Source: a virus
Strand: one strand, 5' to 3'
Length of the DNA stretch: 64,000 nt
Virus record (IMG/VR): IMGVR_UViG_3300029858_000001
Coordinates: 27,123-91,122 of that record
The notes beneath the pieces were generated by a model that was not told the origin of the DNA, did not search any database, and worked only from the letters and a program-made list of their open reading frames with translations. Made by a program: the position numbers and the translations under genes. This document shows, piece after piece, positions 1 through 26,121 of this stretch; position 1 is the stretch's first letter, and every line of letters begins with the position of its first letter.

Positions 1-1
1 A

Positions 2-1179
2 AATGATACTGCTGAAGCTCTTGAAAAAAAGAGTACCGCTATCCCTCTTAAAGGCGAAATCGTTTATGACCAAACTAATCGCAAGATGAAGATTGGTGAT
101 GGCAGTACTGCCTTGGGCGATTTAAAATTTGTTGGCGGTGATGAAGCTCAAAATTTTGAAGCTATTCCAACAGGTGAAGAAACTGACGTTTAGGCTATTA
201 CTCGTGTTGTGGGTTTTGCAGAGCTTCATAATGGCGATACTGCTATTGTAAAACGTGTTATTACTGGCGATAAGACTTCTTACACCGCTTATGTATATGA
301 CGGCGAATGGAAGGCCATGGATGGCAACTATCGTGCTGATAATGTTTATTTTGATGATGATATTACTTATACTGTTGCTATTGGTACTCTTTCTAAGCCA
401 TCTGGCTCTGCTAAGTTCAATGCTAAGGGCAAGAGTGTTGAGCAGGTGCTTTCTAGTCTAATGGCTCAAGAAGCTAATCCGTCTAAGACCAATCCGGCTG
501 TCACTCTTAATGCCCAAAATATTAGCACATATGAGATTGGCACTAAGAAAAACCTAACATATACAGCTTCTCTATCCGCTGGTTCTTATACCTATGGCCC
601 AGCCACTGGTATTACGGCTCAGACTTGGGAAGTTAGCTGCACTGGTGTGACCGAGAAGAAAACAACTGCCACTGGCTCTTTTGAAAATGTTATTGCTGAA
701 GCTACTGCTAAGAAGATTACAGCTAAGGCAACTTACAATGAAGGTTCTATTCCAGTAACCAATTTGGGCAATCCTTATCCTGCGGGTAAAATTGCAGCAG
801 GCTCTGCTTCTAAGGATAGTAATATTCTTCAGGGTGTTCGTTATATGTTCTGGGGTCCTATGACTTCTGATGCTGGACTTAACTCTGCTAATGTTCGTGC
901 TCTTGCTCATAAACAAGCTTAGGGCGCTGGTACATTAGGCACATTCGGTGCTGGAGCTGGTGCAAAGAAAGTTATCGTTGCAGTTCCTGCTGGTCGTAAG
1001 ATTACGAAGGTTCTTATGCCAAGTGCTCTTAATGCTGATGTTACAGCTCTATTTGTTAAACAAGGCACTACTGTTAGTGTTGAAGGTGCTGAAAGCTATG
1101 CTGCAGCTCCTTATGATGTATATGTCTATCAACCTGCTTCTATTGATGCTGGTGAAACATATAGCGTTACGATTGGTTA
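2..1179 (+). CDS. Tail fiber / receptor-binding protein, 5'-truncated by the window edge; read through in-frame TAG at 191 and 920
   Basis: Frame-2 reading is continuous from the window start to TAA at 1177, joining track ORF 209-922 across TAG. It carries a KIGDGSTALGDL module shared with the other fiber genes and Ala/Thr/Gly-rich fiber-like composition. Confidence 0.55.
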
Positions 1180-1203
1180 ATTTTGAAGGAGGAATAATAT
1201 AAT

Positions 1204-3840
1204 ATGGCTACTATTTTAAATAATGCTGCTTATATGGGTTTCCCGCTGTCTATTAAGCGTGGTAATCCTGCTCCTGTTGATACTACCGCTGTATGGTATA
1301 ATAAAACAGAATTAGAAACTTATGCTAAATCTGGCGCTACAGCTTATGTTGGTCAGATTTTAACTTTAGTTGCAGATAGTAAGTGCGAAGCTTACATGAT
1401 CAGTAATGCAGCTGGTACTCTTGTTAAGCTTGCTTCTACTACTGCTTCTGGCGATCTTGCTTCTGATGTTTCTACATTACAAGGTAAAGTCGCTTCTCTT
1501 ATCGAAAAGGTTGGGGCAGCCAAAGAAGGCGAAACAGCAGCAACTGGCTTATACGCATTAATTGAAGCTGCCCAAAAGCAAGCAGATAAGGGTGTTGCTG
1601 ATGCAAAAACTGCTGATGGCAAGGCTGTTGCGGCATAGAAAGATGTAGATGCCCTTGAAACTATTGTTGGTGCTGATGATACTACTGGTCTTCGTAAGCG
1701 TATTAAGACTAATGAAGATGCTATTGATGTTCTGAAAGGCACTGGTGAAGGTTCAGTCGCGAAGGCTGTTAATGATGCTATTGATGCATTTGCTACCAAG
1801 GCTACTGATAATGGTACTATTGATACCTTCAAAGAATTAGTTGATTGGGTCGCAAAGCATCCAGAAGTTGTTAATGGTTTAACTGGCGATATTAATAAAT
1901 TAAAAGCTATTCTTAAAGGATTTGGTACTGCTGAAGGTCAATCTCCTGAAGTAAAGGCTTATATTGATGGCGCTATTAAGGCTCTTAAGATTGAGGATTA
2001 TGCTAAGGCTGCTGATTTAACTACTCTTGCCGGACGTGTTAGTGTAGTTGAAAAACTTCCTGCTGCTGGCATTACTGCTGAAGATATTGCTAACTGGAAT
2101 GCAAAGCAGAATGCTGGTAATTTTGTTGATCAATCTGCTTATGACACTAAGATGGCAGCTCTCGAAAAGGCTGATAGTGATAATACAACTGCTATTGCAG
2201 CTGTAGAAAAGAAAGCTAATGCCGCTGTTGTTGCTAACAAAGACATTACTGCGGGTACGGCTACTAAAGTTACTTATGATGCAAAAGGTCTTGTGACTAA
2301 GGGCGAAAATCTTGCCGTCTCTGATATTCCTACTCTTGGTATTTCCAAGATTGATGGTCTTCAGGATGCTCTTGATGGCAAACAGGGTAATTTAACATTT
2401 GAAGGCACTTATAATGCGGGCACCAACAAGGTTGCTACTGAAAGTACCGTTAATACTGCGGTTGATAATTTACGTCATACTCTTGGTGGCGAAGATGGTA
2501 AGACTGATATTGACACTAAAGATAGTCAAACTATTCATGGTGCTAAGCTCTATGCTGAGGATAAGGCCAACACTGCTCTTGCTTCTGCAAAGACTTATGC
2601 CGATGGTCTTGTTGGTGACACTTCTGCTATTGGTAAGAAAGTTGCCGCTCTTGAAGGTAAGGTTGATGTTGATAGCGTAAGTGGTGCAATTGATACAGCT
2701 AAGACCGAAGCTATTAATACCGCTGGTACTAATGCTGATACTAAAATTGCAACTGCTAAGACCGCTATTCTTGGCGAAGGACATACTGGCACTGTAAAAG
2801 AAGCTTATGAACTTGCTGCTTCCAAGACTACTATGAAAGCAGTCGAAGATAAAGGTTATGCAGTTAAAACTGAAGTCGATACAGCTGTTGCTGATGCAAA
2901 GAAAGCTGGCACCGATGCTCAAACTTCTGTTAATGCATTAAGCGATAAAGTTGGTACTGTTCCAGCAGATAAGACAATTGTTTAGATGATTGCTGATGCC
3001 CAAGCAGCTGCTACTTATAATGATAGTGCTGTTAAGGCAAGTATCAAAGCTAATGCTGACGCCATTACTAAGTTAAATGGTGCTGATACTATTGAAGGCT
3101 CTGTAGCTAAGACAGTCAAGGACGCAGTTGCTGCTGAACAAAAGCGTGCAGAAGGTAAAGAACAAGCAAATGCTACTGCTATTGCTGGTGTTAAATCTCG
3201 TGTTGATACCTTCCTTGCCGCTGCAGATGTTGGTGAAGCCGCTGTTGATACCTTAAAAGAAATTCAGACTTACATCAGTACACATGGCTCTGCTGCCGAT
3301 TAGATGGTTAAGGATATTGCAGCTAATAAGAAAGCAGTTGAAGATGAAGCTGCTCGTGCTAAGGGTGAAGAAACAAAACTTAATACTGCAATTACCGATG
3401 AAACCAATCGTGCAACAGGTATTGAAAGTGGTTTAGCTAATCGTCTTACTACTCTTGAAGGGGCTGACACTGTTGAAGGTTCTGTAGCTAAGACAGTTAA
3501 GGATGCAGTCGATGCTCTTAATATTACTCAGTATGCAAAAGATGCTGATGTTGTCAAGAAAGAAACTGGTAAGAGCTTAATCGCTGATACCAAAATTACT
3601 AAGCTTGATGGTATTGCAGATGGCGCTCAAGTTAACGTAATTGAAAAGATTACAGTTAATGGTACAGAACAGACTCCTACTAAGAAGACAATAGCTCTTG
3701 AAAGCTATAAGGGTGATGGCACTTCTATTGAGAATAATGCTAATCATACTCTTAGTGTAAAGGCAGTTTCTACTGATCTTCTTAAATAGGGTACACTTAC
3801 CCTTGTTCTTAATGGTGGTAACGCTAGTACTTTAATTTAA
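1204..3840 (+). CDS. Long fibrous tail fiber protein (Ala/Lys-rich, repetitive coiled-coil-like); read through TAG at 1636, 2983, 3301 and 3787
   Basis: Strong RBS GGAGGAATAATATAATATG. Frame-1 reading is continuous across four TAGs and joins track ORFs 1204, 2152, 2986 and 3304 up to TAA at 3838. The motif GADTIEGSVAKTVKDAV is repeated. Confidence 0.7.
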
Positions 3841-3888
3841 TAAATTATAAGGGGAGAGAAATCTCCCCTTTCTATTAGGAGGATTGGA

Positions 3889-4230
3889 ATGGCTGATAAA
3901 ACTTTAAATATTCGTATTAAGTCTAAATACGATACACTTGCTAATTGGACTGCAAACAAATCAAAAGTTTTACTTGCCGGTGAAGTGGGATTTTGTTATG
4001 TACCAGCACTTACATCTGGTACAACAACCACAGCTCCTACTGTGTTATTTAAAGTTGGCGATGGTACAACCACATGGGAAAACCTACCTTGGGGTGCAGG
4101 GCTTGGAGCAGATGTTCCGGCGTGGGCTAAGGCACCTACGAAGCCATCTTATACTCTTGATGAAATAGGCGCTAACCCTGATGCCAACTATGTAATTTTT
4201 GATTGCGGTTCTTCAACTGTAAATATATAA
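3889..4230 (+). CDS. Small tail-fiber N-terminal adaptor-module protein (VGDGTTTWENLPW motif)
   Basis: Complete ORF with RBS AGGAGG, double TAA stop and a downstream terminator. It shares the IGDG-T...NLP module with genes at 1, 5311, 22632 and 30239. Confidence 0.6.
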   Translation: MADKTLNIRIKSKYDTLANWTANKSKVLLAGEVGFCYVPALTSGTTTTAPTVLFKVGDGTTTWENLPWGAGLGADVPAWAKAPTKPSYTLDEIGANPDANYVIFDCGSSTVNI

Positions 4231-4233
4231 TAA

Positions 4234-4267
4234 TAAAGACTCCATTTTGGAGTCTTTATTTTTTTTA
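4234..4267 (+). terminator. Rho-independent terminator
   Basis: AAAGACTCCATTTTGGAGTCTTT followed by T9. Confidence 0.8.
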
Positions 4268-4346
4268 TCTGGACTAATTTAAATAATTTAATATTTTTAT
4301 TTTTTATATAATTTTAGAATAGAAACATTGGAAGGAGGAACTTTCA

Positions 4347-5165
4347 TTGGTAGACAAGCAATTAAAATCTTTGCAAATGCCTGGCTTAAAAGATAGATAT
4401 GTAATTTAGCTTACAGTTCAAGAATTAGAAAATTTAATTCAAAAAATAGAGCATGAAGGCGGCATTGCTTATAAACAAAATATTTTTAATGGAGATTACA
4501 ATAAACTAAGTAATAAACCTGATTTATCTATTTATGCTGAAAAAACTGAGATACCTACTAATTTTATTACTTTAGGTTAGTTAAATACTCGTAGCGATGA
4601 AATTAAAAATAATTTAATTGGCACTGATAAGGATACTGAAGCATCTAATACAATTAAAGGAGCTATTAAAGCTGCTCAAAATTTTAGTAATAAAGCATTA
4701 TCTGATGCAAAAGAATATGTTAATCAACAAACTACAAGTGACAAATTACCAAAAGCAACAACTGAAAAATTTGGTGTAGTTAAAGTAGGTCAAGGTCTTA
4801 AAATTAGTGCCACTGGTACATTAATAGCAACTGGCGAAGGGGTCGTAGCAGATGCTGTTGAATGGAACAATGTTATTAATAAACCATAGCCTGATGAAAT
4901 TAAAAATGATCAATATTATTTAACTTTGATTGATACATTAGGCGCTGTTGCTGTATCTAATGATTATAATGATTTAAATAATAAACCTGATTTAAGTAAA
5001 TATGCTGAAAAAAGTGCTATTCCAGATTTATATAAATTACCAACAGCAACTACAGAAACACTTGGTGGTGTAAAAATTGATGGTAAAACAATTACAATAA
5101 AAGATGGAGTTATAAAAGCACAAGACGCAGGCGCCAAAGTTATATGGTGCAAATGGACAGAATAA
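4347..5165 (+). CDS. Tail fiber protein with internal repeats (NDYNDLNNKPDLSKYAEK.. twice); TTG start; read through 3 TAGs
   Basis: RBS GGAAGGAGG 7 nt upstream of TTG at 4347. Frame-0 reading is continuous to TAA at 5163 and includes track ORF 4926-5165. GGVKIDGKTITIKDGVI and GVVKVGQGLKISATG motifs are fiber-tip-like. Confidence 0.55.
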
Positions 5166-5310
5166 GTTTGAAATTGATAACTTATTTATAATAATCTTTA
5201 CTCTTTTGGAAATAGATGATTGAGAAAGATATTTAATATAGGGAAATAAATATCTTGAACTATTTTCAAAATATTTATTTCCCTATATTTTTGTTTAAGG
5301 AGGAAATATA

Positions 5311-5535
5311 ATGGCAAATAAAACATTCCAAGGTCGTATTGTTTAGAAGCATGATACAAAAGCCAATTGGGATAAAGCAACTAATTTTGTTCCTTTAAAA
5401 GGTGAAATTATTATTTACGATGATTTAAAGAAAATAAAAATAGGTGATGGAACTACTAAAGTAACAGATCTTGTTTTTATTAATGATAATATTTCATCTA
5501 CTACAATCATCACTTGGTCTGATGATGGAACTTAA
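5311..5535 (+). CDS. Small adaptor-module protein (KIKIGDGTTKVTDL); one in-frame TAG
   Basis: RBS AAGGAGG, ATG at 5311, TAA at 5533. It shares the module with 3889-4230. Confidence 0.5.
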
Positions 5536-5554
5536 GAAAAAGGAGAGATAAAAT

Positions 5555-5914
5555 ATGGGATTATATTTAGGAAAAGAAAAAATAAATAATATATCAGTTG
5601 GAGAAGCAGCTTTAGGTATCACTGATATTTCTGATGAAACTACTATCAATATTTCAGGAATTTTAAAAGGGGAAAATCATAAAATAGTTTCAGCTACTCC
5701 TGGTGTTGATTATGTTATCCCTAATAGTTTAAATAATTTTATTACTTAGGATGATTTAAAATCAAAAGCTAATATTAATTCCCCTAACTTCACTGGAGCC
5801 CCTTTAGCTCCTACTCCTGATATTAGTATTAATAATACTTAGATAGCAACGACAGAATTTGTTAATCTTTTAATTAATAATAAAATTTCTGCTATTTTAA
5901 ATAAGGCATACTAA
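5555..5914 (+). CDS. Tail fiber repeat protein (NSPNFTGAPLAPTPDISINNTQIATTEFVN motif); read through TAG at 5747 and 5840
   Basis: Track ORF 5555-5749 extends in frame to TAA at 5912. The SP.FTG.P.APTP + IATT.FV motif is the classical phage tail-fibre repeat. Confidence 0.6.
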
Positions 5915-5928
5915 GGGGGGGGAAAATT

Positions 5929-7143
5929 ATGGAAGAAAAAATATATTAGCCTTTAATCCATGGACAATTAATAATTACCCATCAATGCCAGTTAAATTGC
6001 ACTTATTGTTTTGAAAGTTATAAAGATAATAATGTTATGACATTAGATACTTGTAAAAAAATAATAACTTTTTTATCTGAAAATAATATAAATAATGAAC
6101 CGCAAGTTATTAGTTTTTTTGGAGGAGAGCCATTATTACATTTTAATGATATAATGTAGCCAATAATTAATTGGAATAAAAATGAATTACAAAATAAAAA
6201 TATGTATTTTACATTTACAACTAATGGTCTATTATTAACTGAAGATATTTTACAATATTGTAAAGATAATAATGTTAAATTTATGTTATCTATAGATGGA
6301 AATAAAGAAAGTCAAGATGCTACTAGAAAATATAAAAATAACAATAATTCAACATTTGATAAATTATCAGAAAATATTCCAAATATATTAAAATATTTTC
6401 CTAATACTACAGCTAGATTAACTATAGATGTCAATAATATTTCTTATTTAGCTGACTCTATAAAATATTTAGATGAAATTGGTTTTCAAAATTGTCATGT
6501 TATACCAGATGTTTTTTCTTCTTGGTCTTCTGAAATAGAATAGATTTATAAGGATCAATTAAATTAGTTAAATGAATACTTTATAAAAAAATTTACAAAT
6601 TATACAGTTCCTTTAATTCCAGCAACTTGGAAAGAAATGATGATAAAAAAAATTATAAAAGATTATTTAGAAGAAAATAATTTATTTAGAACTGCGGATA
6701 TCTGCCTTCCTCAAAATAGATGTGGTTTTTGTTTTCAAAGAAAAGGATTTTTTGAAACCAATGGAGATATTTATACTTGTGGACATTTAACTAATGAAAG
6801 TAAAGATAGTAATTTTTATTTAGGTAATATTTATGATAATTAGCCAATTGATATAAATAAAATTGAATCTCTCTATTTATTAAATAAAGAAAATAAAATT
6901 TTTAATAAAAATTGTGATAATAATTGTCCATTATTTAATTGCTGCACTGGCGGTTGTTTACCAAATAACTATTTAATTAATAATAATTTATTTAATGCCC
7001 CTGATGCTTATTGTAGCTGGTATAAAAATTTATTTAACTCTGTAGATTCTTTATTACAATATTTTGACAAAGATAAAAAAAATATTTTATTTAAGAATTA
7101 CTTTTATGGAGCAGTAAAAGGAGGATGCCATTATGTCTGCTAA
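5929..7143 (+). CDS. Radical SAM / SPASM-domain peptide-modifying enzyme (rSAM-1)
   Basis: CX3CX2C motif HQCQLNCTYC and FFGGEPLL. The C-terminal SPASM-like Cys clusters are CGFCFQ..YTCGH and NCDNNCPLFNCCTGGC. Frame-1 reading is continuous across 5 TAGs, joining track ORFs 6202 and 6637. Confidence 0.8.
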
Positions 7144-8107
7144 ATTATCTGAATGGCTGTTAGATGGATTAGATATCAATAAAATAGTTCATAATGGAGA
7201 TGGCAATGATTTAGTTTCACCTATATAGGATACTGATAGTGCCACTTATTCTGAATATTCTAAATATTCTAATTATTCTAATACATATTCTAGATATTCT
7301 AGGTATTCTGATTATGATAACTATTATAATTATTCTGTTTATTATAATTATTCTAATTATTCTAATACAATTAGCATTTCTGGATAGCCAGTCAGTCAAA
7401 TTATTACTTATGGTAATAAAGTAACTTTTACTGTTACTTTTTCTAAAACACCTTCATCATATCAATGGTATGTATCTACTGTTTCTTCTGGAGGTGGAAC
7501 AGCTATTTCTGGAGCTACTTCTTCTTCATATTCATTTACTCCTAAACTATCAGACAATGGAAAATATTATTATTGTGTAGCTTCATTAGGCAATACAGTT
7601 ACATCAAATTCAGCTCAATTAACTATAAAATATATTGATAGTTGTAATATTTCTACTAGCATAGGTGAATCTATTAATATATACAGTTATTTACTACCAA
7701 AATCTTCAATAATTAACTCTTATAATTTAGAAGATAATTCCATTGCTACTATTTCTGAAAATACCTTAATTGGTAATAAAGCTGGTAAAACTACTCTTAC
7801 TTTAGTAAGTAGCAATGGATTAAATAAAGCAATAGAAATAAATGTATTTGAAAATAAATTAGAATCAGTCTTATATAATATTGCTTAGGCAATAAAAAAA
7901 TATAATAATTTAAATTAGACTCTTTATCCAAATCAATTTTATAATAGTCTAAAATCTAAAAATATTAGTTCAAAAAATTATAATACTTTAGAAGATTTAT
8001 TTACAGATCTAAGTACAGTAATAAAAGAAATTAAAGGTATTTCTACTTCATTAAAGCCAGAAGAATTTTTTTATAAAATTTTGGAGGGTATAAATTATGA
8101 CAGATAA
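7133..8107 (+). CDS. Tyr-Ser tandem-repeat protein with Ig-like (BIG2-like) domains; candidate rSAM substrate / fiber component
   Basis: RBS GGAGG. The start overlaps the rSAM-1 stop and the gene ends by overlapping the rSAM-2 start. N-terminal region is YSEYSKYSNYSNTYSRYSRYSDYDNYYNYSVYYNYSNYSNT. Downstream beta-rich Ig-like region is IATISENTLIGNKAGKTTLTLVSSNG. Confidence 0.6.
7246..7372 (+). repeat. About 14 tandem copies of a 9-bp unit (TATTCTNAW) encoding (Y-S-x)n
   Basis: Direct reading of tattctgaa tattctaaa tattctaat tattctaat ... aattattct aattattct. It lies inside CDS 7133-8107 and generates spurious poly-Ile/Leu ORFs in other frames. Confidence 0.85.
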
Positions 8108-9296
8108 AGAATTATTTTTATCTTATTATAAAAAATAGAATCCAGATTTAGAAAAAAAAGTACATAATAAAATTTTAGTTTTACTTCATGGCAGTTATAA
8201 ATGTAATTCAAATTGTATTTATTGCGAAAATCATCGTTTAAGAGAAGAATATTTAAATGCTACTGTCTCTAAAAATATATTAGATCAAATTATTAAAAAA
8301 TTAGGTCCAATAATTAGAGAAATTACTTGGCATGGAGGAGAACCTTTACTTTTATCTGAAGATCTATTATCTTATTTAGAATAGCTTAAAAAAGAAAGAG
8401 GATATACTTTCCCTACAACCTTATAGACAAATTCTATATTATTAAATGAAGAAAAGTATAATTTTTTAAATAATTTAAACATTCATTGGGGAACATCATT
8501 TGATGGACTAAAAAATAATTTATCCAGAGGAGAAAAAAGTACTAAAGCAGTATTAGATTTAATATCACGACATAAAAATGAAGTAGGATTTATTTGTGTT
8601 TATTATAATGATACGATAAAAGATATAATTCAAAATTATGAATATTTTAAAAGTTTATAGATAAAAAATGTATAGTCATGTATCGTTCGAGAAAATATAA
8701 TTGAAAATTCTAATGTATATTTAATACATAATGATGATGCTTTAAATTATATGACCAATTACATAGATTATTGGATACATGATATTAATAACCCAATAAA
8801 TGATCATTATATAACACGATAGATTTTACGAGTTTTAAATGTCCCGTCTAATTGTGAAGATGATTATTGTATTGGTGGATGGATTTATATAGATGCTTTT
8901 GGCAATATAGGATTTTGTGGATAGTCTCCTAAAGATACTCCTATATTAAATATTAATGATATAAATAATTACAGTGATTTTTTAAATAATAAAAATTATT
9001 TAAATATTATTGGTAAACAAATAAAATTAGAAGAAAAATGTAGCTTATGTGAATGGCGAAATGTATGTCATGGAGGCTGTATGGGACTTAATTATGAAAC
9101 AAATCATAATTATGAAATTTTAAATCCTCGTCACTGTGAATATACAAAAAATCTTTTGACTAATGTTTATGAATTAATAAAAAACATTGATATTACAAGG
9201 AAAGATATTTATAATCCTATGTTTTTATAGTTATTAGAATCAAATTCTTACAAGACCTTAAATGAGATAAAGGAGCTAAATAAAATAAATGGCTAA
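8097..9296 (+). CDS. Radical SAM / SPASM-domain enzyme (rSAM-2)
   Basis: CX3CX2C motif CNSNCIYC and WHGGEPLL. C-terminal CSLCEWRNVCHGGCMG. Frame-0 reading is continuous across about 8 TAGs. It is translationally coupled to its neighbours. Confidence 0.75.
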
Positions 9297-10251
9297 TATA
9301 GCAATTTTAAATTATTGTAATTTATAGTGTCCATATTGCTTTGCAAATAAATTTATTACTGAAGAAAAGAAACAATTTATAACAGATAAAGAATTAGATG
9401 ATATATTGAATTTTTTAAGTCACAGCACTGATTTCGGAAGAATTGGAATTATAGGAGGAGAACCTACGATACATCCCAAATTTGAAGATGTATTTACTAA
9501 AATTTCAAATTTTGCAGAACAACATAATGTTTCTACAGTTACATTTTCAAATGGAATTGAATTATACAATTATGCTAAATTATTTAATAAACAAAATAAT
9601 GTTTTAATTAATTTAAATCATCCTGATATTATTGGAGAAGAAAAATGGAATAAAATTAATTTGACTTTAAATACGTTTAAAGCATTAAATAATTTAGATC
9701 ATATCACTTTAGGTATAAATTTGTACCCCGATATTATTGATTATTAGTATATAATAAAAATGTCTAAAAAATTTGGATTTCGAATGGTTAGATGCAGCTA
9801 TGTAGCTCCAACTTGTAATTATAATAATATTGATAAAGATGAATATTATTTAAATGCAAAAAATTTATTTCTAAATTTCATAAAAGATTGTGGGAATGAA
9901 CAAATACAAATCCATTTAGACTGTAATAATATACCATTATGTTATTTTTCAGAAGAAGAAAAAATAATATTAAATAAAAATGTGACTGGATGGCATAATT
10001 TATGCAATCCAGTTGTAGATATAACCCCTGATATGAAAGCAACTGCTTGTTTTGGAGCTTATAGTTTAATTGATTTAAAATAGTTTGATAATATTAAAGA
10101 AGCAGAAAATTATTTTTTACTTAAAAAAATGTATCCTAAAAGATTACTAAATAATGGTGGAAAATGCCAAGAATGTAAAAAATTTTTAAATCTTTCATGT
10201 CAAGGAGGATGTTTAGCTTTTACAAAAAATTCAGAGGAGGTAAATAATTAA
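9289..10251 (+). CDS. Radical SAM / SPASM-like enzyme (rSAM-3); its CX3CX2C motif contains a TAG codon
   Basis: MANIAILNYCNL(TAG)CPYCF and IIGGEPTIHP. C-terminal CQECKKFLNLSCQGGCLAF. Frame-1 reading joins track ORFs 9406 and 9760 across TAGs. Confidence 0.75.
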
Positions 10252-10252
10252 A

Positions 10253-14070: not shown

Positions 14071-14163
14071 AATTTGATTTTTAAAAAATTATTTTATATA
14101 ATATAAATGTAAATAAGAAATAAATTTTTTATTTACAGCATTTAACTCACCCCTTTCTTAAAT

Positions 14164-15449: not shown

Positions 15450-15461
15450 TGAGGATAATAA

Positions 15462-16303: not shown

Positions 16304-17582
16304 ATTCCCAGGTACTGAAGAATTCACGGATACTTTAGGTCGTTATTTTGGCAGCCCAAATGTTGAAAAAACACGAACTATTACATTTCAAATAACAGAT
16401 GACTGCAATCTATGTTGCTCTTATTGTTATCAAATTAATAAAGGACATCATAAAATGCCTTTTGAGATAGCTAAAACATTAATTGATGAATTACTTTATA
16501 ATGATAAATTAATTGAAAATTATGTAAAATCAAAAAATTCTTTAGGAGTTATATTAGAATTTATTGGTGGTGAACCATTACTTGAAGTAGATTTAATAGA
16601 TTAGATTATTGATTATTTCATAGAATAGTGTATTACTTTGCATCATCCTTGGATTGATAGATTTAGAGTCTCTATTTGTTCTAATGGAGTTTTATATTTT
16701 ACTCCAAAAGTACAAGAATTTATTAAAAAGCATCAAACTCATTTGTCATTTTCAATATCTATTGATGGTAATAAAAAATTGCATGATACTTGTCGTATTT
16801 TTCCAGATGGTACTGGTAGCTATGATTTAGCAATTAAAGCCGCAAAACATTATATGAAGCATTATGATAAAAATTTAGGAAGTAAAATGACTTTATCTAT
16901 AGATAATATTAATTATACTTTCCTTGCATTAGTAAATTTATGGGAAAATGGATATAATTATATTCATGCCAATTGCGTTTATGAAAAAGGCTGGACAATA
17001 GAACATGCACGAGTTTTATATAATGAATTAAAAAAGGTAGCTGATTATCTTCTTAATAATCATTTAGAAAAAATTAAAGGTACTTCTATATTAAATCTTG
17101 ATTTAAGTCAATAGAAAAATATATCAGATCAAAATTTCTGTGGTGGTAATGGTAATATGCTCGCCGTTGATTATAAAGGTGATTTATACCCTTGTTTACG
17201 TTATATGGAAAGTTCAATAGGTAAAAATCAATTACCATATATTATTGGCAATGTTGATGATGGCATTGGATATAACCAATAGACAAAGGATATGATAGCT
17301 GGATTAGATGTAACATATAAATCACAAAGTCCGTAGGACTGTATTGAATGTCCAGTGTCAAGTGAATGCGGTTGGTGTTCTGCTCTTAATTATCAAGAAT
17401 TTGGTACTATTAATAAACGTACTACATATACATGCTTAATGCATAAGGCACGAGTATTAGCAAATTATTATTATCAAAATAAAATGGGCGGTAATTATCC
17501 ATTTTTAATTAATAGACAAGATGCTATAGATATAATCGGTGAAGATGAAACTAACTATTTAATGGAGTTAGCTAATGGATAA
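16296..17582 (+). CDS. Radical SAM / SPASM-domain enzyme (rSAM-4), paralog of rSAM-5
   Basis: ITFQITDDCNLCCSYCYQ (CX3CX2C) and FIGGEPLL. SPASM-like CIECPVSSECGWCSALNY. Frame-0 reading joins track ORFs 16296, 16638 and 17355 across TAGs. Confidence 0.8.
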
Positions 17583-18305: not shown

Positions 18306-18378
18306 GCCGGCATAGCACAGTTGGTAGTGCAGCTGATTTGTAATCAGCAGGTCGGGGGTTCGAATCCGTCTGCCGGCT
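18306..18378 (+). tRNA. tRNA-Thr(UGU)
   Basis: Hand-folded cloverleaf. Acceptor GCCGGCA/TGCCGGC, D-stem GCAC/GTGC, anticodon stem GCTGA/TCAGC with loop TTTGTAA. The T-arm has one mismatch. CCA is not encoded. Confidence 0.6.
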
Positions 18379-18457
18379 CGCTATCATGTGAAAGCCTTCT
18401 CGTGGCGATAGTGTTTTAACTAATTTCACAATTATTTATTAAAGGAGTCATTTAGAT

Positions 18458-19105
18458 ATGGCATACATTTATTAGATAACAAATAATATTAATGGAAAAA
18501 TTTATGTTGGTAAAACAGTAAAAAATAATATTTAGGAACGTTGGAAAGAACACCTTAAAGAGTATAAAAAACCTAGATGTGAAAAACGTCCTTTATATGA
18601 CGCAATGAATAAATATGGTTCAGAAAATTTTTCTATTAAAGAGTTAGAGGAATGTCCATTAGAAGAACTTAATGATAAAGAAGTTTATTGGATTGAAAAA
18701 TTAGGTTCTTTTAAATATGGATATAACGCTACAATTGGCGGAGATGGCAAACAATATATTGACTATGATTTAGTATGCGAAACATATAAGAATTTACAAT
18801 GTATTGTAGATACTGCTAAACAATTAAATATTAGTGAAGATTCAGTTTCTAAAATTTTAAAATTATATAAAATTGATATTATTCCTAATGCTAAAATAGT
18901 TCAAAATAAGTATGGGAAAATAATTAATATGTATGATTTAAATGATAATTATTTAAGGACTTTTCCATCAACAACTGAAGCAGCTAAATTTATGGTAGAA
19001 AATAAATTAACTAATTGTAAAATGACTACTATAAAACAACATATTTCTGAAGTATGCAAAGGTAAACGAAATACAGCTGCTAAGTTTAAATGGAAATATG
19101 CTTAA
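18458..19105 (+). CDS. GIY-YIG homing endonuclease
   Basis: N-terminus MAYIY(Q)ITNNINGKIYVGKTVKNNI(Q)ERWKEH... is the GIY-YIG motif. Two TAGs read through into track ORF 18605-19105. It sits inside the tRNA island. Confidence 0.75.
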
Positions 19106-19118
19106 TTATTATACCATT

Positions 19119-19218
19119 AGCCAAGATTAGATAGTTAATAAAACCGTTTCTAGTTAATAGATTCTAGATGGCCGGGACTCAAAACTGTTGGCAATTCTAA
19201 TCTTGGCTATTTTCTTTT
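19119..19218 (+). terminator. Long imperfect stem-loop (AGCCAAGATTAG ... CTAATCTTGGCT) followed by a T-rich run
   Basis: Inverted repeat read directly downstream of the endonuclease gene. It is unusually long (about 90 nt) and could also be a small structured RNA. Confidence 0.4.
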
Positions 19219-19262
19219 ATTTGAAAAAATTAAAAAAATGATATATAATATATATACAAAAT
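19212..19262 (+). promoter_or_regulatory. Conserved promoter motif (..ATGATATATAATATATATACAAAATAAAGAAA)
   Basis: Same motif family, upstream of 19300-19653. Confidence 0.5.
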
Positions 19263-19299
19263 AAAGAAAAAAATAAATGAGAAAAAGGTGTTAAAAGTT

Positions 19300-19653
19300 A
19301 TGGAATATTCTCTGGATAAGTATAAGTATTATGTCCCCACTAAGGCAGATGGTACACCATATAAGGTTGTTGCAGTTTCTACTTATGCTGGTAGGACTGT
19401 GCGTGGTGTAGCTAAGTGTGATCCGAAGGATACCTTTGATGCTGAAAAGGGTAAGCAGCTTGCTGCAGCACGTTGTCAGGCAAAGGTCAGTTCTCAGCGT
19501 CTGAAGCGTGCTACTAAGAAGCTTGATGAAGCTACTAAGGCACTTGAGAAGGCACAGAAGTATTATGATGATATGACTGTGTATTTCAATGATAGTGCAA
19601 GAGATAAGGAAATGTACGATAGCGTAGTTGAAAGACTTGCTAAGGAAATGTAA
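19300..19653 (+). CDS. Hypothetical protein (TAG-free, higher GC; paralog of 40627-41181)
   Basis: Track ORF with ATG at 19300. It shares the pattern G(T/V)A(R/K)C.P.D...EKG...A.AR with 40627-41181. A terminator follows at 19663-19690. Confidence 0.55.
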   Translation: MEYSLDKYKYYVPTKADGTPYKVVAVSTYAGRTVRGVAKCDPKDTFDAEKGKQLAAARCQAKVSSQRLKRATKKLDEATKALEKAQKYYDDMTVYFNDSARDKEMYDSVVERLAKEM

Positions 19654-19684
19654 TAAATAAGGGTAATTAATTACCCTTTATTAT

Positions 19685-19761
19685 CCGGGTGTAGTTCAGT
19701 TTGGTAGAACGCTTGATTTGGGATCAAGAGGCCGTGAGTTCAAGTCTCGCCACTCGGACCA
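19685..19761 (+). tRNA. tRNA-Pro(UGG)
   Basis: Acceptor CCGGGTG/CACTCGG, anticodon loop TTTGGGA, T-arm GTGAG-TTCAAGT-CTCGC, 3' CCA encoded. Confidence 0.7.
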
Positions 19762-20037
19762 TCAGGGTTCTGTTAAAGATACATAATTGAAAAGGATTGA
19801 TCCCCCTAAGTAAATTAGTATTGGAATGAAAAAATGAGGTCTAGATGACACAGATAACCTCCCCTGAGCCATCCCTTTTGTTAGTAGGTTGTCAGGGTTA
19901 AATAACTAACATTAAAGACACACGCAGCAAATATTAGATAAAATCTATGTGTTATTGGTTCAAGTCCAATATTATCTCTGTTAAGATAATTCGCCCAAAT
20001 GGTAGGGCAATAGCTAATTTATTTAATGTGTCTTGTA

Positions 20038-20085
20038 AATTTGAATTTTAAAAAAAAATATTATATAATATATAAGTAATCAATA
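20038..20085 (+). promoter_or_regulatory. Conserved promoter motif (TTGAATTTTAAAAAAAAATATTATATAATATATAAG) upstream of tRNA-Gln/Tyr
   Basis: TTGAAT, 17-nt spacer, TATAAT. Confidence 0.55.
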
Positions 20086-20110
20086 AGAAATTATTAATTA
20101 CTTATAATTT

Positions 20111-20185
20111 ACTGGTGTCGCCAAGTGGTAAGGCACAGGACTTTGACTCCTGTATTCGTTGGTTCAAATCCAGCCACCAGTGCCA
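20111..20185 (+). tRNA. tRNA-Gln(UUG)
   Basis: Acceptor ACTGGTG/CACCAGT, anticodon stem CAGGA/TCCTG with loop CTTTGAC, discriminator G, CCA. It is very similar to E. coli tRNA-Gln. Confidence 0.7.
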
Positions 20186-20189
20186 ATAT

Positions 20190-20276
20190 AGGTCAGTACA
20201 GTGTAATTGGTATCACCCCTGACTGTAAATCAGGTGCTTAATGCGGTTGTTGGTTCAAGTCCAACCTGGCCTACCA
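20190..20276 (+). tRNA. tRNA-Tyr(GUA), type II with long variable arm
   Basis: Acceptor AGGTCAG/CTGGCCT, anticodon loop CTGTAAA, T-arm GTTGG-TTCAAGT-CCAAC, CCA encoded. Confidence 0.65.
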
Positions 20277-20288
20277 TTTAAAATAAAA

Positions 20289-20330
20289 TTTGAAAATTTA
20301 AAAAAAATATTATATAATATATATATAATA
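20289..20330 (+). promoter_or_regulatory. Conserved promoter motif (TTGAAAATTTAAAAAAAATATTATATAATATATATATAAT) driving the large ncRNA candidate
   Basis: Motif family with -35 TTGAAA and -10 TATAAT. Nothing protein-coding lies downstream for about 1.4 kb. Confidence 0.5.
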
Positions 20331-21720
20331 AATGAACTTTAAAAATTAAATAATAATTTAATTACGGTTATAGTACAACTCAGTGTAGACTTAACACCAT
20401 AAGGCTGAGAAATCGACCCACTCTAGTGGAGATCGTAGAATGAAATATTCAAAGGATACTTTGAAATTATTTCTAAATCTTTTGTAGTGATACATTAGAT
20501 TCACGCATCGAAGGATGTGGCTACGGGGAGATTGTGCTGGAATAATCGCATTTAAGGTCCTGTTCTTCTCGCTTCCATAATAGATAGCATTGTTAATAGC
20601 AATGCCGAATCCTTGTTAGGGTAAGGCTGGTAACCTTGCCAAACCAAGGAAATACCAATAAGGAAGTTGGCAATTGATGTGGCGTAATCCACTATAAGAG
20701 AAGGTCAAGGGTCAAGTAGCCGAAATTTGCCAAGACAGTATATTTTATAGTTAATATTGGTAATTTTAGTTCTGAATGGTCGGTGAAAGATAGAGGTAGT
20801 CAGTCCTCTGTAAGATTTGGCTTAGGCTGGGGCAAGAAGTTATGAAGTCGCTATTCATAGCTCAGACTTGTTTCCTTACTTACCTAATAAAATGAAGATT
20901 ATTAATCAGTAGGGCGAAGGTCCGTAGTATAATTGTAATTAAGTTATTATTTAATAACTTACGATTCCTTTCACAAAGTAATTTTATAACGTATATAACG
21001 GTAAGAAGGTCTATAGGTAGAGAAAACTACAAAGGAATGTGCATATCTTTCCTAATTATTAAAATTACTTTAAAATGAATTATGTAGATGCTAATATAGG
21101 CGGTGGCTTGCATACTACTAATCCCATTGGGTAGCCAATCCCACATCGTTAGGGACCTCTGCGGAACCTGCTCCTATGGCTGTAGGGTTCTTACATAATC
21201 TAATCAAATAAGGTTGACTCGCCTGTTGTCCGGTGAAATGATATATCTGGAAACCGTACTGATACGTATCAGATATTTGATTAGCGTCCTAATCTTGGTT
21301 AATTAGGTAGTGGAACAATACGCTAAACCAGCCAGCTCTCCACTATAAATAAGCTGAATAGGGATGTTTGTGGTTCACATACCAAAAAGCCATTACCAAG
21401 TGCGGAAATAAGATCCTTGGTAGTCTCTCATATAAAGGCGTGGAAAATGAGACGTGATGGACTACGAAAAAGACATATAATAGGTAGAGTTATTATTTAT
21501 TGTGTTAGATTATAGAATGAAAATCCTATTATTAAAAACTGTATATTCTACTTCCTATTGGTAGGTATTATAAGTTTAATGGTAGGTCAAAAATTTAATA
21601 TATTCCAATAGCTAATGAATGAGGTAAGCTGAAGTACTTAGTGGCGTGGGCAGGCATAGAGGCGACCTATAAATGGTTAGTGGCTATGGTGTAGTTTATT
21701 CCTATTGGATATATTAATTT
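20330..21720 (+). ncRNA. Large ORF-free structured ncRNA candidate (GOLLD/ROOL-like phage ornate RNA?)
   Basis: No ORF of 60 aa or more on either strand from 19653 to 22204. Local GC (about 40%) is well above the coding background. It has many G/C-rich short helices, its own promoter, and flanking tRNAs. Class assignment is inference only. Confidence 0.45.
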
Positions 21721-21744
21721 TTGTAAATATATTATACTGAATAA

Positions 21745-21790
21745 TTTGATTTTAAAAAAATTATTTAGTATAATATATTTACAAGATAAA
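21745..21790 (+). promoter_or_regulatory. Conserved promoter motif (TTGATTTTAAAAAAATTATTTAGTATAATATATTTACAAG) upstream of the suppressor tRNA
   Basis: TTGATT, 17-nt spacer, TATAAT. A leader hairpin (AGACAGTTT...AAACTGTCT) lies between the promoter and the tRNA. Confidence 0.55.
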
Positions 21791-21900
21791 GAGAAGTTAG
21801 GATAATTTCTCTAAGACAGTTTCAGCAAATTTTTATTAAAGATAATCATATGTTTTTGGTTCATAAGAAGATACTTTATTAAACTGTCTTGTATATATAT

Positions 21901-21975
21901 TCCGGCTTTGGGTAGCGGTTAGCTCAGCTGACTCTAAATCAGCAAGTCTCAGTTCGACTCTGAGAGCCGGTGCCA
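21901..21975 (+). tRNA. Amber suppressor tRNA, anticodon CUA (reads UAG); identity probably Gln
   Basis: Acceptor 3' strand AGCCGGT pairs with CCGGCT at 21902-21907. Anticodon stem GCTGA/TCAGC with loop CT-CTA-AA (U33 present). T-arm CTCAG-TTCGACT-CTGAG. Discriminator G then CCA. Short variable loop (type I). Confidence 0.7.
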
Positions 21976-22074
21976 GGCGTAAGGCTCACGCAGCAAATTT
22001 ACTTTTGAAAGTTCACCTAAAATGAATTGCTATTTTTCAAAATTGAGTCTTGATTTAATTAATATAGTTTATTT

Positions 22075-22160
22075 GCCGGTGTGGTGGAATGGTAGACACA
22101 AGGGACTTAAAATCCCTCGGTGGCAACACCATGCGGGTTCGAGTCCCGCCACCGGCACCA
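22075..22160 (+). tRNA. tRNA-Leu(UAA), type II
   Basis: Acceptor GCCGGTG/CACCGGC, anticodon loop CTTAAAA, long variable arm, T-arm GCGGG-TTCGAGT-CCCGC, CCA encoded. Confidence 0.7.
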
Positions 22161-22164
22161 TTAA

Positions 22165-22415
22165 ACAATAGTAGCTAACGGCAGTTGAATAGACGGGTCG
22201 GGGCTAACATAGAAAGGTTAGCAGGTAGTGCGGCGGTAGGTAACAAATCCGCAAGTCGAAATGAGTTGGGAAATCCAAATGATACGGCTTAGATGTTTTC
22301 CTCACTTGAGGTTTGGATGGAGATTTTAGGCAAAGGATAACAACCTTTGACTGCCATCCTGTAAAGCGACCATGAAACAGGGTCATAGCTACCATACTAT
22401 TGTTTATTAATACCA
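22165..22415 (+). ncRNA. Second GC-balanced non-coding stretch between tRNA-Leu and tRNA-Gly (small structured RNA candidate)
   Basis: About 250 nt with no credible ORF. The minus-strand track ORF 22204-22416 has no RBS and lies in the tRNA island. Several complementary segments are visible, for example GGTTAGC..GCTAAC and CCAAAT..ATTTGG. Confidence 0.3.
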
Positions 22416-22420
22416 AATAT

Positions 22421-22494
22421 CCAGGATTAGTTTAATGGTAAAACTGGTGATTTCCAATCATCTGTTGGGAGTTCAATTCTCCTATCCTGGTCCA
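22421..22494 (+). tRNA. tRNA-Gly(UCC)
   Basis: Acceptor CCAGGAT/ATCCTGG, D-stem GTTT/AAAC, anticodon stem GGTGA/TCATC with loop TTTCCAA, T-arm GGGAG-TTCAATT-CTCCT, CCA. Confidence 0.65.
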
Positions 22495-22631
22495 CTAAGA
22501 TTCTAATATTGTCATCCTCCTTTTGTTTGTTTGGTGTTTCTTTGGAAAAGATGGGTAAGTTCTAATAATGAACTTACCCATCTTTTTATTATTAGAAGAA
22601 GTATAAAAAGATAAAACGGAGGAGTGAATAT

Positions 22632-25223
22632 ATGAATAGATATATTGTTGTAAATACTAAAGCTAAAAACTCTGCTGTTTGGGAAACTATTGGAGATAAT
22701 TACACTCCTTCTAAAGGAGAAGTGTGTATTATAGTTCCTCCAAGTGATAAAATAGATACCACTAAGGAACCGACTTCAACAGACACAACAAGCTCTAATA
22801 TTATATATACAACAGATGATAATGGAAATTTAACTCTCCATACTGAGACTGCTGATAGAAATAAAGTAGCACCAGTAGCAATAAAAATTGGTGATGGTTC
22901 TACAATATTTAGAAACTTACCAACTTTAACCAGCGGCAACGTTTAGGGAGATTGGACTACAGTTGATCCAACAGATCCAAGTTATATTCATAATAAACCT
23001 ATTATGAATGATGATTTATTCCAATAGAGCGAAGAAAAAACTTTATTAATTCCTTCATCAAGCGTTTATGATGAAAAAAAGCAATTAATAACTATAGGTC
23101 TATTGGATTTGTTTAATATTACTTACGCCGATAAACCTTAGACTAATGACAACACTCTTACTAATGCAGAAAAAGCTGCTTTAAAATATGTCATTGCAGC
23201 AGGTTCTTATGACTTAAAAGATAAAACAAATATAAATACTAAAATATTTACTGAAAATATTTAGAATAGAGTTAATGTTATAACAAAATTAAGAAATTAT
23301 TGTGGTATTAATTCTGACATAACAATTTCTGAAGAAAATTTTGCTTATATGTCAAATCTATTACAAAATGGAACAGCGGAAATTGAATTAAATAAAAAAG
23401 AATTATTATTAACAGAATTAGATAAATTAATTACTCTTGAAAATATTGTTCCCATAATGAATATAACCGTTAAGGATTAGACTAATATAAAAACATTCCA
23501 TCAAGAAGAATATATTAAAATTAGCGATCATTATTTTCATCCTAACGATTTATTAATTTATAACGATAATAACTGGGGCTATTATGAAATACATATGTTT
23601 GGTTAGACAGCTCCATTTTATGCCAATGAAATTCAGTATCTTAGTTATTTAATTAATAATAATTTAACTTATGATACTTATTTAGAATATAATGTTCTTT
23701 TACAAACTTTATTAAAAACAAAAATAAATAATTATATTTCAGAAAGTAAATATAAAAATTATTTATTAACTAAATTATAGAATATTGTTCCTGATGCTTT
23801 TAATAATGTAGACAATATTGATGATAGAATAAAAAATATTAATAGATTAATAGATCAGTACAATCAAAATACTGATAATCCTTTAGATAAATATGATTTA
23901 TCTAATGAAAGTTTAAATACTAAAATAGAATTTATCATTAACTATTTAAATAATAAAACTCCATTAACTACTGATTTATCTTCTGAAGATAAAGAAGCTT
24001 TAGTTAAAGTAATTAATGATAATAATATTAGTAATTTAGAAATAAATAAACAACCTCGTTTTTGGTTCTATAAGTCTAATATCTTGAAAACTAAAGAGAA
24101 ACAAACATTAACATAGATTATTAAAGATAATTTATATATTTATAATAATCGTTTTACTTTAGAAGAATAGGATATTCTTATTAAAGCTATTGAAGGAAAA
24201 AGATTTACAGATAATTAGGTTTTAAAATTAAATTCAGGATTTAATACTCAATTAGCTAATAAAATTCGTTTAAATTCTGATATTACAGTTAATAATGGTA
24301 AAAATTTTTTGATTGAGCGTATTATGCTTAATTATAAACAAGATGAAAATGGTGTTCCTATTTTTGAATATATTTTAAATGGTGATGAAGAAGCTCAATT
24401 ATTAAAGCAAGTATAGATTTCTAAAAATGCTTTAAGTAATAGTTTGGGCGAAACTGAAATAGTAGCAATTACTGAAGAAATTTTAAATGATCTAATTCAA
24501 GAATTATCTTTAGATAAAGACAATACTATCATCGAAGGATTTGAAGGAGAAAATATTTATTATGAAATTAATAATGAAATTATTCTTAATCCAGTAGATA
24601 GAGCAATTTATATGCGATTAGATAGTTTAAAAGGATATTTAAAATAGACTAAAAACTTAGAGATTATATTCCATTATAAAAAACGTAGTTTTAATACAAC
24701 TTATTTATCTGATTTAGCCAGTGACTGGAATGAAAATGATCCTGAAAATCCTGGATATATCGCGCATAGATTTATTTATCAAGATGATCAAGGTCGAGTT
24801 GTTTATGATCCAACCTCTTGGTTTTATAGATGGCTAGTTAATTTAATTAATAATAAGATAGAGGCTTGGTATGAAAAAGAATTAAAAGATCGTTTAAATA
24901 AAATGGAACAAGATATTGATAATTTAAAGAAACGGTGCGATAATCTACAAAAGTAGATTGATGAAATTAAGTTAAATAACCAAGATACTTATATTTTTAA
25001 CCGCTTAAAAAATCTTATTGTATCTCAACCTGAGCGTCCTATTTTATCTAAAGACTTTTTCCCAAAAATTTGGATTTGTACAGATACTCAATCTGGTTAT
25101 GGTCTTATCTATTGGCGTCAAGGCGGAGAAGATGCTGCAGGTCATTATGATGGAACTGCTTCTGATGCAGTTAAATGGACTCCAATTTCTGCAATTTGGT
25201 CGCCTGATACTTTAACTACTTGA
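22632..25223 (+). CDS. Large tail fiber / receptor-binding protein (about 860 aa) with N-terminal IKIGDGSTIFRNLP adaptor module; more than 15 in-frame TAGs
   Basis: RBS GGAGG. Frame-0 reading is continuous from 22632 through track ORF 24444-24647 to TGA at 25221, with no TAA/TGA in between. Confidence 0.6.
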
Positions 25224-25239
25224 AAGGAGGAATTAATTA

Positions 25240-26121
25240 ATGAATAAAAATTACTCATTTCATATAGGTACTTCGACAAAACTAACTTATAATCCAGAAG
25301 CTGATTATAATAAAGCTGGATCTATTTTATTTACTAAAGATACAAATGAATTATTTATTAATATTGATAATGTTTCTTCTGATGCTAAAGAGTATCGTAA
25401 ATAGGTAAACAGCTTATATTCTACGGCTGTAAAAGGAGTAGATAGTGATAATAAGCCTTTAATATTTAATGCTACTACTTTGAATGAAATGTATGGAAAA
25501 ATTAATGACCATACTGAAAAGTTAAATAAGAAAATGAATATGGTAGATCCGCAAGGATCTGGAAATTTCAATTTCGGTCAAAATAATAGTATAAATAGTG
25601 ATTCTACAAATTCAATAGTTGCAGGACAGTTTTTGAATTAGGGATAGAATAATTCTGATAGTATTACTAGCGGACGATATAATGTCTCAGTAAATAATGC
25701 TTTATTAACTATTGGCTCAGGTACTGGCGAGAATAGTAGAAAAAATGCTTTTACTATAATCTCTTCTAATGATTTAAATTGCGGTATTTTTTCTAATGAT
25801 TTGTATATTAATACTGGTGGTAATACAACCAGCAAGCCTAATGATAATTTAAAAGTATTAACTTCTGCTGAAATAGATAAAAAAATTTCTGACGCAAAAA
25901 CAGATTTAGAAAGTCAAATTAATGATTTAAGTCCTAGCCCAATTTATAAATCCGCTTCTGCTCCGGAAGAAAATACATCATTATCTTCTAAAGACCTAGA
26001 AAAAATACATCAACTTTTCTGGCTGAATACTTCTAAGGGTAATGGCGTTTTAAACTATTGGTAGCCCAATACTACAGGAGATAGCGGAAAATGGATAGAA
26101 GTATCTGCTATCTTTACTTAA
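25240..26121 (+). CDS. Tail fiber-associated protein
   Basis: RBS AAAGGAGG and ATG at 25240. It reads through TAG at 25399, ~25641, ~25650 and 26062, includes track ORF 25801-26064, and ends at TAA 26119. Confidence 0.5.

Follow-up and report, generated by a model that had tools for sequence, protein, structure and literature searches.

A probable set of modular, horizontally exchanged fiber genes in the TAG-recoded late region of an uncultivated gut phage

Introduction

How does one phage come to carry about a dozen fiber-like genes close together, and what do these genes have in common? The question is raised by the first 26,121 positions of a 64,000-nucleotide (nt) stretch of IMG/VR virus record IMGVR_UViG_3300029858_000001 (positions 27,123 to 91,122 of the record), the whole of which we call the window. 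The source is an uncultivated gut phage of roughly 170-190 kilobases (kb), and positions 1-26 kb of the window are its TAG-recoded late region. A preliminary description had counted at least 12 fiber-like genes there; we find 13 candidates in 1-26121, of which about 11 have at least some evidence in their favour, interspersed with clearly non-fiber genes. We consider it likely that these fiber or receptor-binding-type proteins are built from a few interchangeable modules, which fall into five types: an N-terminal module resembling the Pfam domain Mtd_N, a short N-terminal peptide, an anchor of the T7 gp17 type, a coiled coil of variable length with a linker, and a C-terminal end module. The modules are homologous, they are differently combined in relatives, and homology between relatives breaks at the module boundaries.

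Results

Reading frames in a TAG-recoded region

Under the bacterial code the region is split into short open reading frames (ORFs); with TAG as a sense codon it becomes a series of long, tightly packed genes on the + strand, and + strand ORF coverage rises from 41.7 to 59.9 kb of the 64 kb. Genes in the window end in TAA (52) or TGA (14), and TAG terminates none of them. Among 110 in-frame TAGs compared with relatives, 69 are kept as TAG, and 23 of the 41 changes are to CAA or CAG. ARAGORN places a suppressor tRNA in a cluster of seven tRNAs:

21901-21975, + strand, suppressor tRNA with anticodon CTA

TAG is read as glutamine (Gln) in the window phage, because there is a tRNA(CTA), because no gene ends in TAG and because TAG is either kept in relatives or mainly swapped for CAA/CAG; the suppressor tRNA is needed for translating the TAG-containing fiber genes. 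The features of genetic code 15 are all found here, namely in-frame TAG in conserved genes, TAG never used as a terminator, and a phage tRNA(CUA). It is only because TAG is a sense codon that the gene coordinates of the preliminary description make sense as ORFs.

Across positions 1-64000 the TAG counts per gene are uneven. They are high in the fiber block, and also in g52782 (10) and the RecJ-like g60883 (14), so that recoding is not strictly limited to structural genes. The topoisomerase, the ligase and most genes of 26-37 kb are without any TAG. TAG-free genes with a GC content of 0.38-0.43 and CAG rather than CAA for Gln lie at 28652-30190, 30767-33256, 36977-38047 and 19300-19653; their products are DUF2828/DUF7788, major-vault-protein-like (MVP_shoulder), Band_7/flotillin and Rv2632c-like proteins, and the genes look like islands of foreign codon usage. 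In searches for close GenBank relatives, megablast matched tRNAs only, tblastn of g10253 (listed below) found none, and the topoisomerase subunit stayed below 40% identity.

The fiber-like genes

With TAG as Gln, the candidate genes and one related gene outside the fiber block (g30239) are as follows; lengths are in amino acids (aa).

2-1180, + strand, g2: fiber-like gene, cut by the window start; Mtd_N-like N-module at 2-151
1204-3840, + strand, g1204: 878-aa Ala-rich protein, probably a coiled-coil shaft; fiber status uncertain
3889-4230, + strand, g3889: stand-alone 113-aa Mtd_N protein; N-module at 3889-4113
4377-5165, + strand, g4377: fiber-repeat protein; DYN[DK]LxNKPDLS and ATTExxGxxK motifs, two copies each
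5311-5535, + strand, g5311: stand-alone 74-aa Mtd_N-only protein; N-module at 5311-5499
5555-5914, + strand, g5555: 119-aa protein with a classical tail-fiber motif (SPNFTGAP…IATTEFV)
10253-11044, + strand, g10253: N-peptide at 10253-10387, predicted T7 gp17-like anchor at 10394-10597, then coiled coil, KKYVD linker at 10760-10870 and C-module at 10916-11041
11060-12046, + strand, g11060: paralog of g10253; N-peptide, predicted anchor at about 11201-11407, coil, KKYVD linker at 11528-11647
12060-12482, + strand, g12060: conserved 140-aa neighbour; fiber status uncertain
12526-14070, + strand, g12526: CBM_4_9 domain and ALK/LTK-type glycine-rich domain (Pfam 1e-47 and 5e-7)
14244-14678, + strand, g14244: minimal protein of 144 aa; N-peptide at 14244-14378, KKYAD linker at 14385-14498, C-module at 14550-14675
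22632-25223, + strand, g22632: 863 aa, 13 in-frame TAGs; Mtd_N-like N-module at 22674-22946
25240-26121, + strand, g25240: 293 aa; diverged C-module at 25984-26118
30239-30550, + strand, g30239: stand-alone 103-aa Mtd_N-like protein, outside the fiber block; N-module at 30239-30424

All-versus-all alignment of the recoded proteins bears out the sharing of modules that had been noticed by eye: the modules align significantly, and the reversed-sequence controls are clean.

An N-terminal module resembling Mtd_N

The N-module, marked by the motif IGDG, is present five times, in four robust copies and one weak copy in g22632 that is split by an insertion. BLASTP links the four, pairing g2 with g5311 (43% over 44 aa, E=5e-8), g3889 with g5311 (E=1e-5), and g30239 with both g3889 (E=8e-7) and g5311 (E=4e-4). 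A profile made from them reaches g22632 at E=0.003, in the second half of the domain only, and finds no other match in six frames, while reversed sequences give E values of at least 1.3. When the relatives' copies are included, the match to g22632 improves to E=7.5e-4 with an envelope of aa 15-105, and both domain halves are found, on either side of an insertion of about 55 aa. The module is thus found at all five sites first proposed for it, though weakly at the one in g22632.

Judged by profile scores, the module appears to be the known Pfam domain Mtd_N (PF18454). With 33.6 bits g5311 is the only copy above the Pfam gathering threshold of 26.3 bits; g3889 (24.6), g2 (23.4) and g30239 (22.9 bits) fall below it at E=2e-5 to 8e-5. 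The domain begins within the first 15 residues of all five proteins. Curation places Mtd_N among the N-terminal structural domains of receptor-binding proteins (RBPs) (PMC9230537), and by analogy the module would serve as an adaptor. A kinship between the N-module and the C-module was rejected (hhalign probability 0.35%). The domain's name brings to mind the possibility that diversity arises from a diversity-generating retroelement (DGR), as in Bordetella phage Mtd, and that name is all that speaks for it. There is no template/variable repeat pair in 1-33.3 kb, where the sole long direct repeat is the C-module; the scanned proteins give no C-type lectin or reverse-transcriptase Pfam hits; and the relatives vary by cassette replacement, not by point hypermutation. 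We regard this explanation as extremely improbable.

Three of the Mtd_N proteins (g3889, g5311 and g30239) are little more than the domain itself. The preliminary description had taken some N-modules for stand-alone small ORFs, which is right for these three and wrong for 22632-22946, the start of the 863-aa protein, which ends at a read-through TAG. One could thus ask whether all the small ORFs are scars left by recombination, pieces of pseudogenes or artefacts that arise when TAG is taken for a stop codon. The segment 22632-22946 is exactly such an artefact, the only one, and g5311 could be a leftover, since its N-terminus belongs to a 400-aa fusion gene in L002 (related loci carry L numbers here, related proteins P numbers). 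Against this, g5311 has its own Shine-Dalgarno sequence and ATG; its 70-74-aa orthologs are widespread on hundreds of contigs (P0372 was found on 725); and the longer versions in L006 and L007 retain the N-terminal 59 aa, that of L006 the last 17 aa as well. The other two are kept as ORFs of essentially equal length, g3889 as a stand-alone ORF of 112 aa in L002 (84% identity) and g30239 as a 103-aa gene in L009-L011 (97%). Because of the ribosome-binding site of g5311 and the conservation on hundreds of contigs, the stand-alone Mtd_N ORFs are real, conserved genes, and their being scars is very unlikely. A programmed frameshift or a splicing event joining g5311 to g5555 was also rejected, since g5555 too has a Shine-Dalgarno sequence and ATG of its own and other genes lie between the two in L005. 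In the window g30239 is located between the TAG-free genes 28652-30190 and 30767-33256.

The g10253 paralogs and a T7-like anchor

An N-peptide of about 45 aa ('LxINKVPS…ELY') is common to g10253, g11060 and g14244. BLASTP aligns g11060 with g10253 at 34% identity over 205 aa (E=2e-34), and the linker profile matches g11060 at E=3e-7. The motif KKY[VA]D, one of two short motifs said to recur in the region, occurs three times against 0.05 expected, only within these paralogs and each time in a 'GKITM…TKKYVD' linker stretch; the other, NDxGYxT, occurs in the window a single time (11675) and is present in inserted segments of relatives. Searches detect 408 homologs of g10253, which lie on contigs of 185-201 kb, and an IMG/VR scan with g10253 returned a single locus, L001, at a contig end. 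Orthologs of g14244 are strictly 144-148 aa long throughout the family.

An AlphaFold model of g10253, built from a 32-sequence alignment whose first row, P0001, is 99% identical to g10253, has a pLDDT (predicted local distance difference test) of 72. In this model the N-peptide is disordered and is followed by a beta-domain (aa 50-113), a long helix (aa 122-161) and a small C-terminal beta unit. The beta-domain has the anchoring fold of the T7 gp17 type, and the known structures that it matches best are the anchors of tail fibers and tailspikes in portal-tail complexes. Both g10253 and g11060 are thus predicted to carry a T7 gp17-type anchor, by fold for the former and by homology for the latter. 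At sequence level, the Pfam family Phage_T7_tail (PF03906) has no match in either protein, nor does either have any Pfam hit. The predicted anchor starts at aa ~48 in g10253, and as far along as aa ~430 in relatives such as P0186.

A C-terminal module

The C-module, said at the outset to be shared by g10253 and g14244, is confirmed in both by BLASTP (52.6% identity over 97 aa, E=3e-31) and at the DNA level (74.8% identity over 139 nt, with clean controls). The end of g25240 is a third copy, which has diverged. Matched directly it is borderline (E=0.015), and the L011 ortholog of g25240, which aligns over its full length (35% identity, E=3e-45), ends in a canonical C-module (E=1e-9). Two further candidates fell away: a C-module at the end of g22632, a by-eye impression, gave E values of at least 3 even with a broadened profile, and the 'GDIWIQYEGE' ending of g12060 did not match.

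The module is about 42 aa long and predicted to be all-beta, with the pattern LWIDT…KY…W…VPVAW, and it is without a match in Pfam, PHROGs or the PDB sequences. In a search of all PDB sequences with its profile (A3), the top match was an unrelated BNR repeat (E 0.2), and fibritin was not hit. The idea that it is a T4 fibritin foldon failed this sequence test, and so the analogy is one of position only. The fold searches used whole models, in which anchor and helix dominate the matches, so that the C-module is not separable there. In an exhaustive profile search it lies at the extreme C-terminus in about 45 of the best 150 representative clusters, on proteins of 85-938 aa with varied bodies, and the fiber-like proteins that it ends come from other contigs. 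Within the g10253 family, conservation is highest in the anchor (0.26 bits) and the C-module (0.32 bits); variation is greatest in the linker and in the coiled coil, which has many indels (0.75 bits). Because it is among the most conserved segments, the C-module is unlikely to be a specificity-determining tip; it is more likely a structural end-cap or docking unit.

These proteins might be neck, collar or head fibers, that is, fibritin-like whiskers or decoration, with modules that serve assembly and not tropism. The gene layout and some PHROG labels point that way. The structural matches of the anchor lead to tail fibers and tailspikes, however; g5555 matches over 10 PHROGs of tail fibers, the best at 1e-10; curated domains of RBPs include Mtd_N, CBM_4_9 and Phage_fiber_2 (PMC9230537); and the C-module profile matches neither the fibritin foldon nor anything else in the PDB. 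A neck or head location seems to us unlikely.

Module swaps among relatives

A single g10253 body with its C-module occurs behind three kinds of N-terminus in relatives: the LKINKVPS peptide, the same peptide with an insert of about 180 aa, and an Mtd_N adaptor nearly identical to g5311, which is fused directly to the g10253 body in L002, P0077 and P0089. A protein of 228 aa (P0198) consists of Mtd_N, a short shaft and the C-module. Compared gene by gene, L002, L005, L006, L007 and L011 conserve the order and swap the cassettes, and the nucleotide alignments place the breaks as follows:

5462 and 10403, L002: homology stops at the end of the Mtd_N module and restarts at the anchor start
10371/10395, L006: 560-bp (base-pair) insert between N-peptide and anchor
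about 11390, L005 and L006: homology stops at the end of the g11060 anchor; the downstream part is replaced
22741…26092, L011: flanks 96-99% identical, g22632 70% identical, most of g25240 unalignable

The L011 ortholog of g22632 is 1182 aa long, its insertion being larger; L009, which comes from a contig of 168 kb, matches window 18652-33300 at 100% identity. The left block (1-4483, GC ~0.41) is confined to genomes of the L002 and L001 types. L004-L007 carry, upstream of their g4377 ortholog, a 2118-aa giant fiber-like protein with Mtd_N and DUF6273 and a 648-aa Mtd_N protein, and these two sit where the window has g2, g1204 and g3889; in L005-L007 the 2118-aa protein occupies the place of the left block. 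The arsenal therefore reaches beyond the left edge of the window. Across the fiber genes GC varies from 0.22 to 0.42 and jumps between neighbours.

Could old tandem duplication and divergence within one genome account for all this, without exchange between phages? The genes g10253, g11060 and g14244 are adjacent paralogs, their copies are only 72-75% identical at the DNA level, which implies ancient duplications, and gene order is conserved in all relatives. Duplication accounts for the origin of the paralogs but not for the mosaic: the same body bears different N-termini in different relatives, homology flips from about 90% to none at module borders, different relatives match different blocks, and GC jumps from gene to gene. 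Duplication as the whole explanation is thus distinctly unlikely. The fiber genes are modular, and exchange of their modules among related phages by recombination, as first suggested for this locus, is supported because the breakpoints fall on module boundaries and one body carries different N-termini.

Other genes of the fiber locus and its surroundings

The remaining fiber candidates differ in how well they are placed. The start of g2 is missing from the window: its 407-aa ortholog in L002 (78% identical) has 13 extra N-terminal aa. It matches Pfam Mtd_N (E=6e-5), phrog_35541 (7e-39) and the tail-fiber family phrog_6049 (0.0035). The next gene, g1204 (GC 0.40), has no Pfam hit, matches phrog_33094 (function unknown), is 64% identical to its L002 ortholog and contains an internal repeat (3065-3135 and 3446-3516). 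Weak phrog matches, including hyaluronidase, are found for g4377, which is 85-89% identical in L005 and L007 and partial in L006 and L002. The N-terminal 30-56 aa of g5555 are common to a 108-aa protein of L006 and a 288-aa protein of L007, with divergence beyond. The distal domain of g11060, about 130 aa, is unlike that of g10253. Orthologs of g12060 are 36-41% identical and keep the same position in L002 and L005-L007; Pfam and PHROG scans gave no family match for it. The slot of g12526 is variable: in L002 it holds a 964-aa Laminin_G_3 protein, and in L005-L007 its content is mosaic.

Positions 1-26121 are not the contiguous fiber arsenal that they had been taken for, since four radical SAM (S-adenosylmethionine) genes, a CXXX-repeat target protein, a homing endonuclease and the tRNA cluster are interspersed. 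At 5929-10251, three radical SAM genes (the PapB-like/SPASM g5929, the SPASM gene g8097, and g9289) surround g7133, which combines a Tyr/Ser-rich 9-nt tandem repeat (7221-7375) with Ig-like domains. The window, L004 and L005 have this cassette within the fiber locus; at the corresponding site L002, L006 and L007 lack it. A known pair, a CXXX-repeat target with its radical SAM maturase, is present in two copies (14724-17582 and 38406-40568), the first within the late, TAG-rich block. The Cys-rich targets are g14724 and g39759 (PF27846 in relatives); the maturase g16296 scores 421 bits against TIGR04115 (cutoff 350), and g38406 is 38% identical to it.

The seven tRNAs (Thr, Pro, Gln, Tyr, Sup-CTA, Leu, Gly) span 18306-22494, a tract with about 3 kb free of protein genes, and a GIY-YIG/NUMOD1 homing-endonuclease-like gene (18458-19105) adjoins them. 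A GIY-YIG domain related to that of this gene (41% over 88 aa) makes up the C-terminus of g52782 (52782-53780). Between genes the motif TTTGAA…(A/T-rich)…TATAATATAT recurs, and it resembles a phage sigma-70-type promoter; it is found at 14065, 18228, 19212, 20032, 20281, 21741, 26116, 27405, 28545 and 30530, and the copy at 14065-14126 lies directly upstream of g14244. Beyond the fiber block, 26230-27366 encodes a secreted protein with an S-layer homology (SLH) domain, hinting at a Gram-positive (Bacillota) host.

Discussion

How might such a locus work? We propose that the conserved module-coding DNA provides the crossover sites between co-infecting relatives. Mtd_N, the N-peptide and the T7-like anchor would fasten trimeric fibers to the virion or to one another, and the conserved C-module would be a structural end-cap for trimerisation, folding or docking and not a specificity determinant. 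The swapped shafts and distal domains would then alter adsorption specificity, and the exchange of modules, as had been proposed for this locus, may change host range.

Several points weigh against this account. The virion location (tail, neck or head) and the effect on host range are parts of it that we infer. The copies of a module within the genome share just 70-88% DNA identity over at most 140 nt; intragenomic exchange is therefore unlikely, and the duplications are ancient. The T7-like anchor is internal, unlike the standard model of an N-terminal anchor. The N-module match of g22632 is weak and has no Pfam hit, and g1204, g12060, g22632 and g25240 are without family annotation. As to structure, the C-module fold comes from a single model (pLDDT ~81), and the AlphaFold2 monomer model of the g14244 family is unusable (pLDDT 49).

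A bolder reading makes the locus a plug-and-socket kit, in which the Mtd_N-only proteins and the C-module are universal connectors and one virion mounts combinatorial, branched fibers. It treats some fibers as double-ended because the T7-like anchor sits internally, and it adds that the radical SAM/SPASM maturases (5929-10251 and 16296-17582) might modify or cross-link virion proteins post-translationally, with the Tyr/Ser-repeat g7133 and the CXXX-repeat g14724 as possible substrates. We hold this to be rather improbable, and keep to a set of fiber proteins assembled from modules that relatives exchange.

Modular, horizontally exchanged fiber genes are already well known; the finding is real but largely ordinary, and our understanding of phage host-range evolution is left unchanged by it. 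Modestly new are the uncurated C-terminal module, the conserved Mtd_N-only miniproteins and the internal T7-like anchor. The locus offers a well-sampled natural case of fiber-module exchange, with hundreds of related contigs from an abundant, uncultivated lineage of TAG-recoded gut phages. It defines a widespread end module missing from Pfam, PHROGs and the PDB, and shows the Mtd_N-only miniproteins to be conserved genes. This can help in annotating the RBPs of recoded phages, which are split by standard gene callers, and in picking junctions for engineered chimeric fibers.

Comparison with known systems

The code-15 (TAG to Gln) gut phages with suppressor tRNAs (bioRxiv 10.1101/2021.08.26.457843; PMC9523058) likewise encode a tRNA(CUA), and in them too in-frame TAG is commonest in the late/structural block. 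Mtd of Bordetella phage BPP-1, the source of Pfam Mtd_N, has in common with the window proteins an N-terminal domain of about 40 aa with the signature GE…KIGDG…W..L; unlike it, the window has neither the C-type lectin variable domain nor a DGR, and only g5311 passes the Pfam gathering score.

The T7 gp17 tail fiber begins with a domain that anchors it to the virion and continues as an alpha-helical coiled coil, and the g10253 model predicts the same fold and order. The difference is that the anchor of the g10253 family is preceded by 45 to about 430 aa and that the C-terminal end is a different, 42-aa module. The N-terminus of CBA120 TSP4 and proteins of the Klebsiella phages K64-1 and RaK2 are also fold matches to this anchor. 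With these branched multi-RBP phages (CBA120 with TSP1-4, K64-1 and RaK2) the window shares a cluster of many RBP-like genes. No pectate-lyase, depolymerase, beta-helix or tailspike families were found in the scanned window proteins, however, which yielded as distal domains just the CBM_4_9 and glycine-rich domains of g12526; general scans, none of them aimed at T4 gp10-like branching domains, identified no such domain; the window phage moreover belongs to a TAG-recoded, low-GC lineage without a close GenBank relative.

The locus also resembles the modular, horizontally exchanged RBPs (PMC9230537): both have conserved N-terminal modules, shafts and distal domains that can be exchanged, and a mosaic pattern in which relatives differ at breakpoints on the borders of domains. 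The window family departs from them in that its C-terminus is conserved rather than variable, its predicted anchor fold is internal, and several of its adaptor domains are encoded as separate proteins of 70-113 aa.

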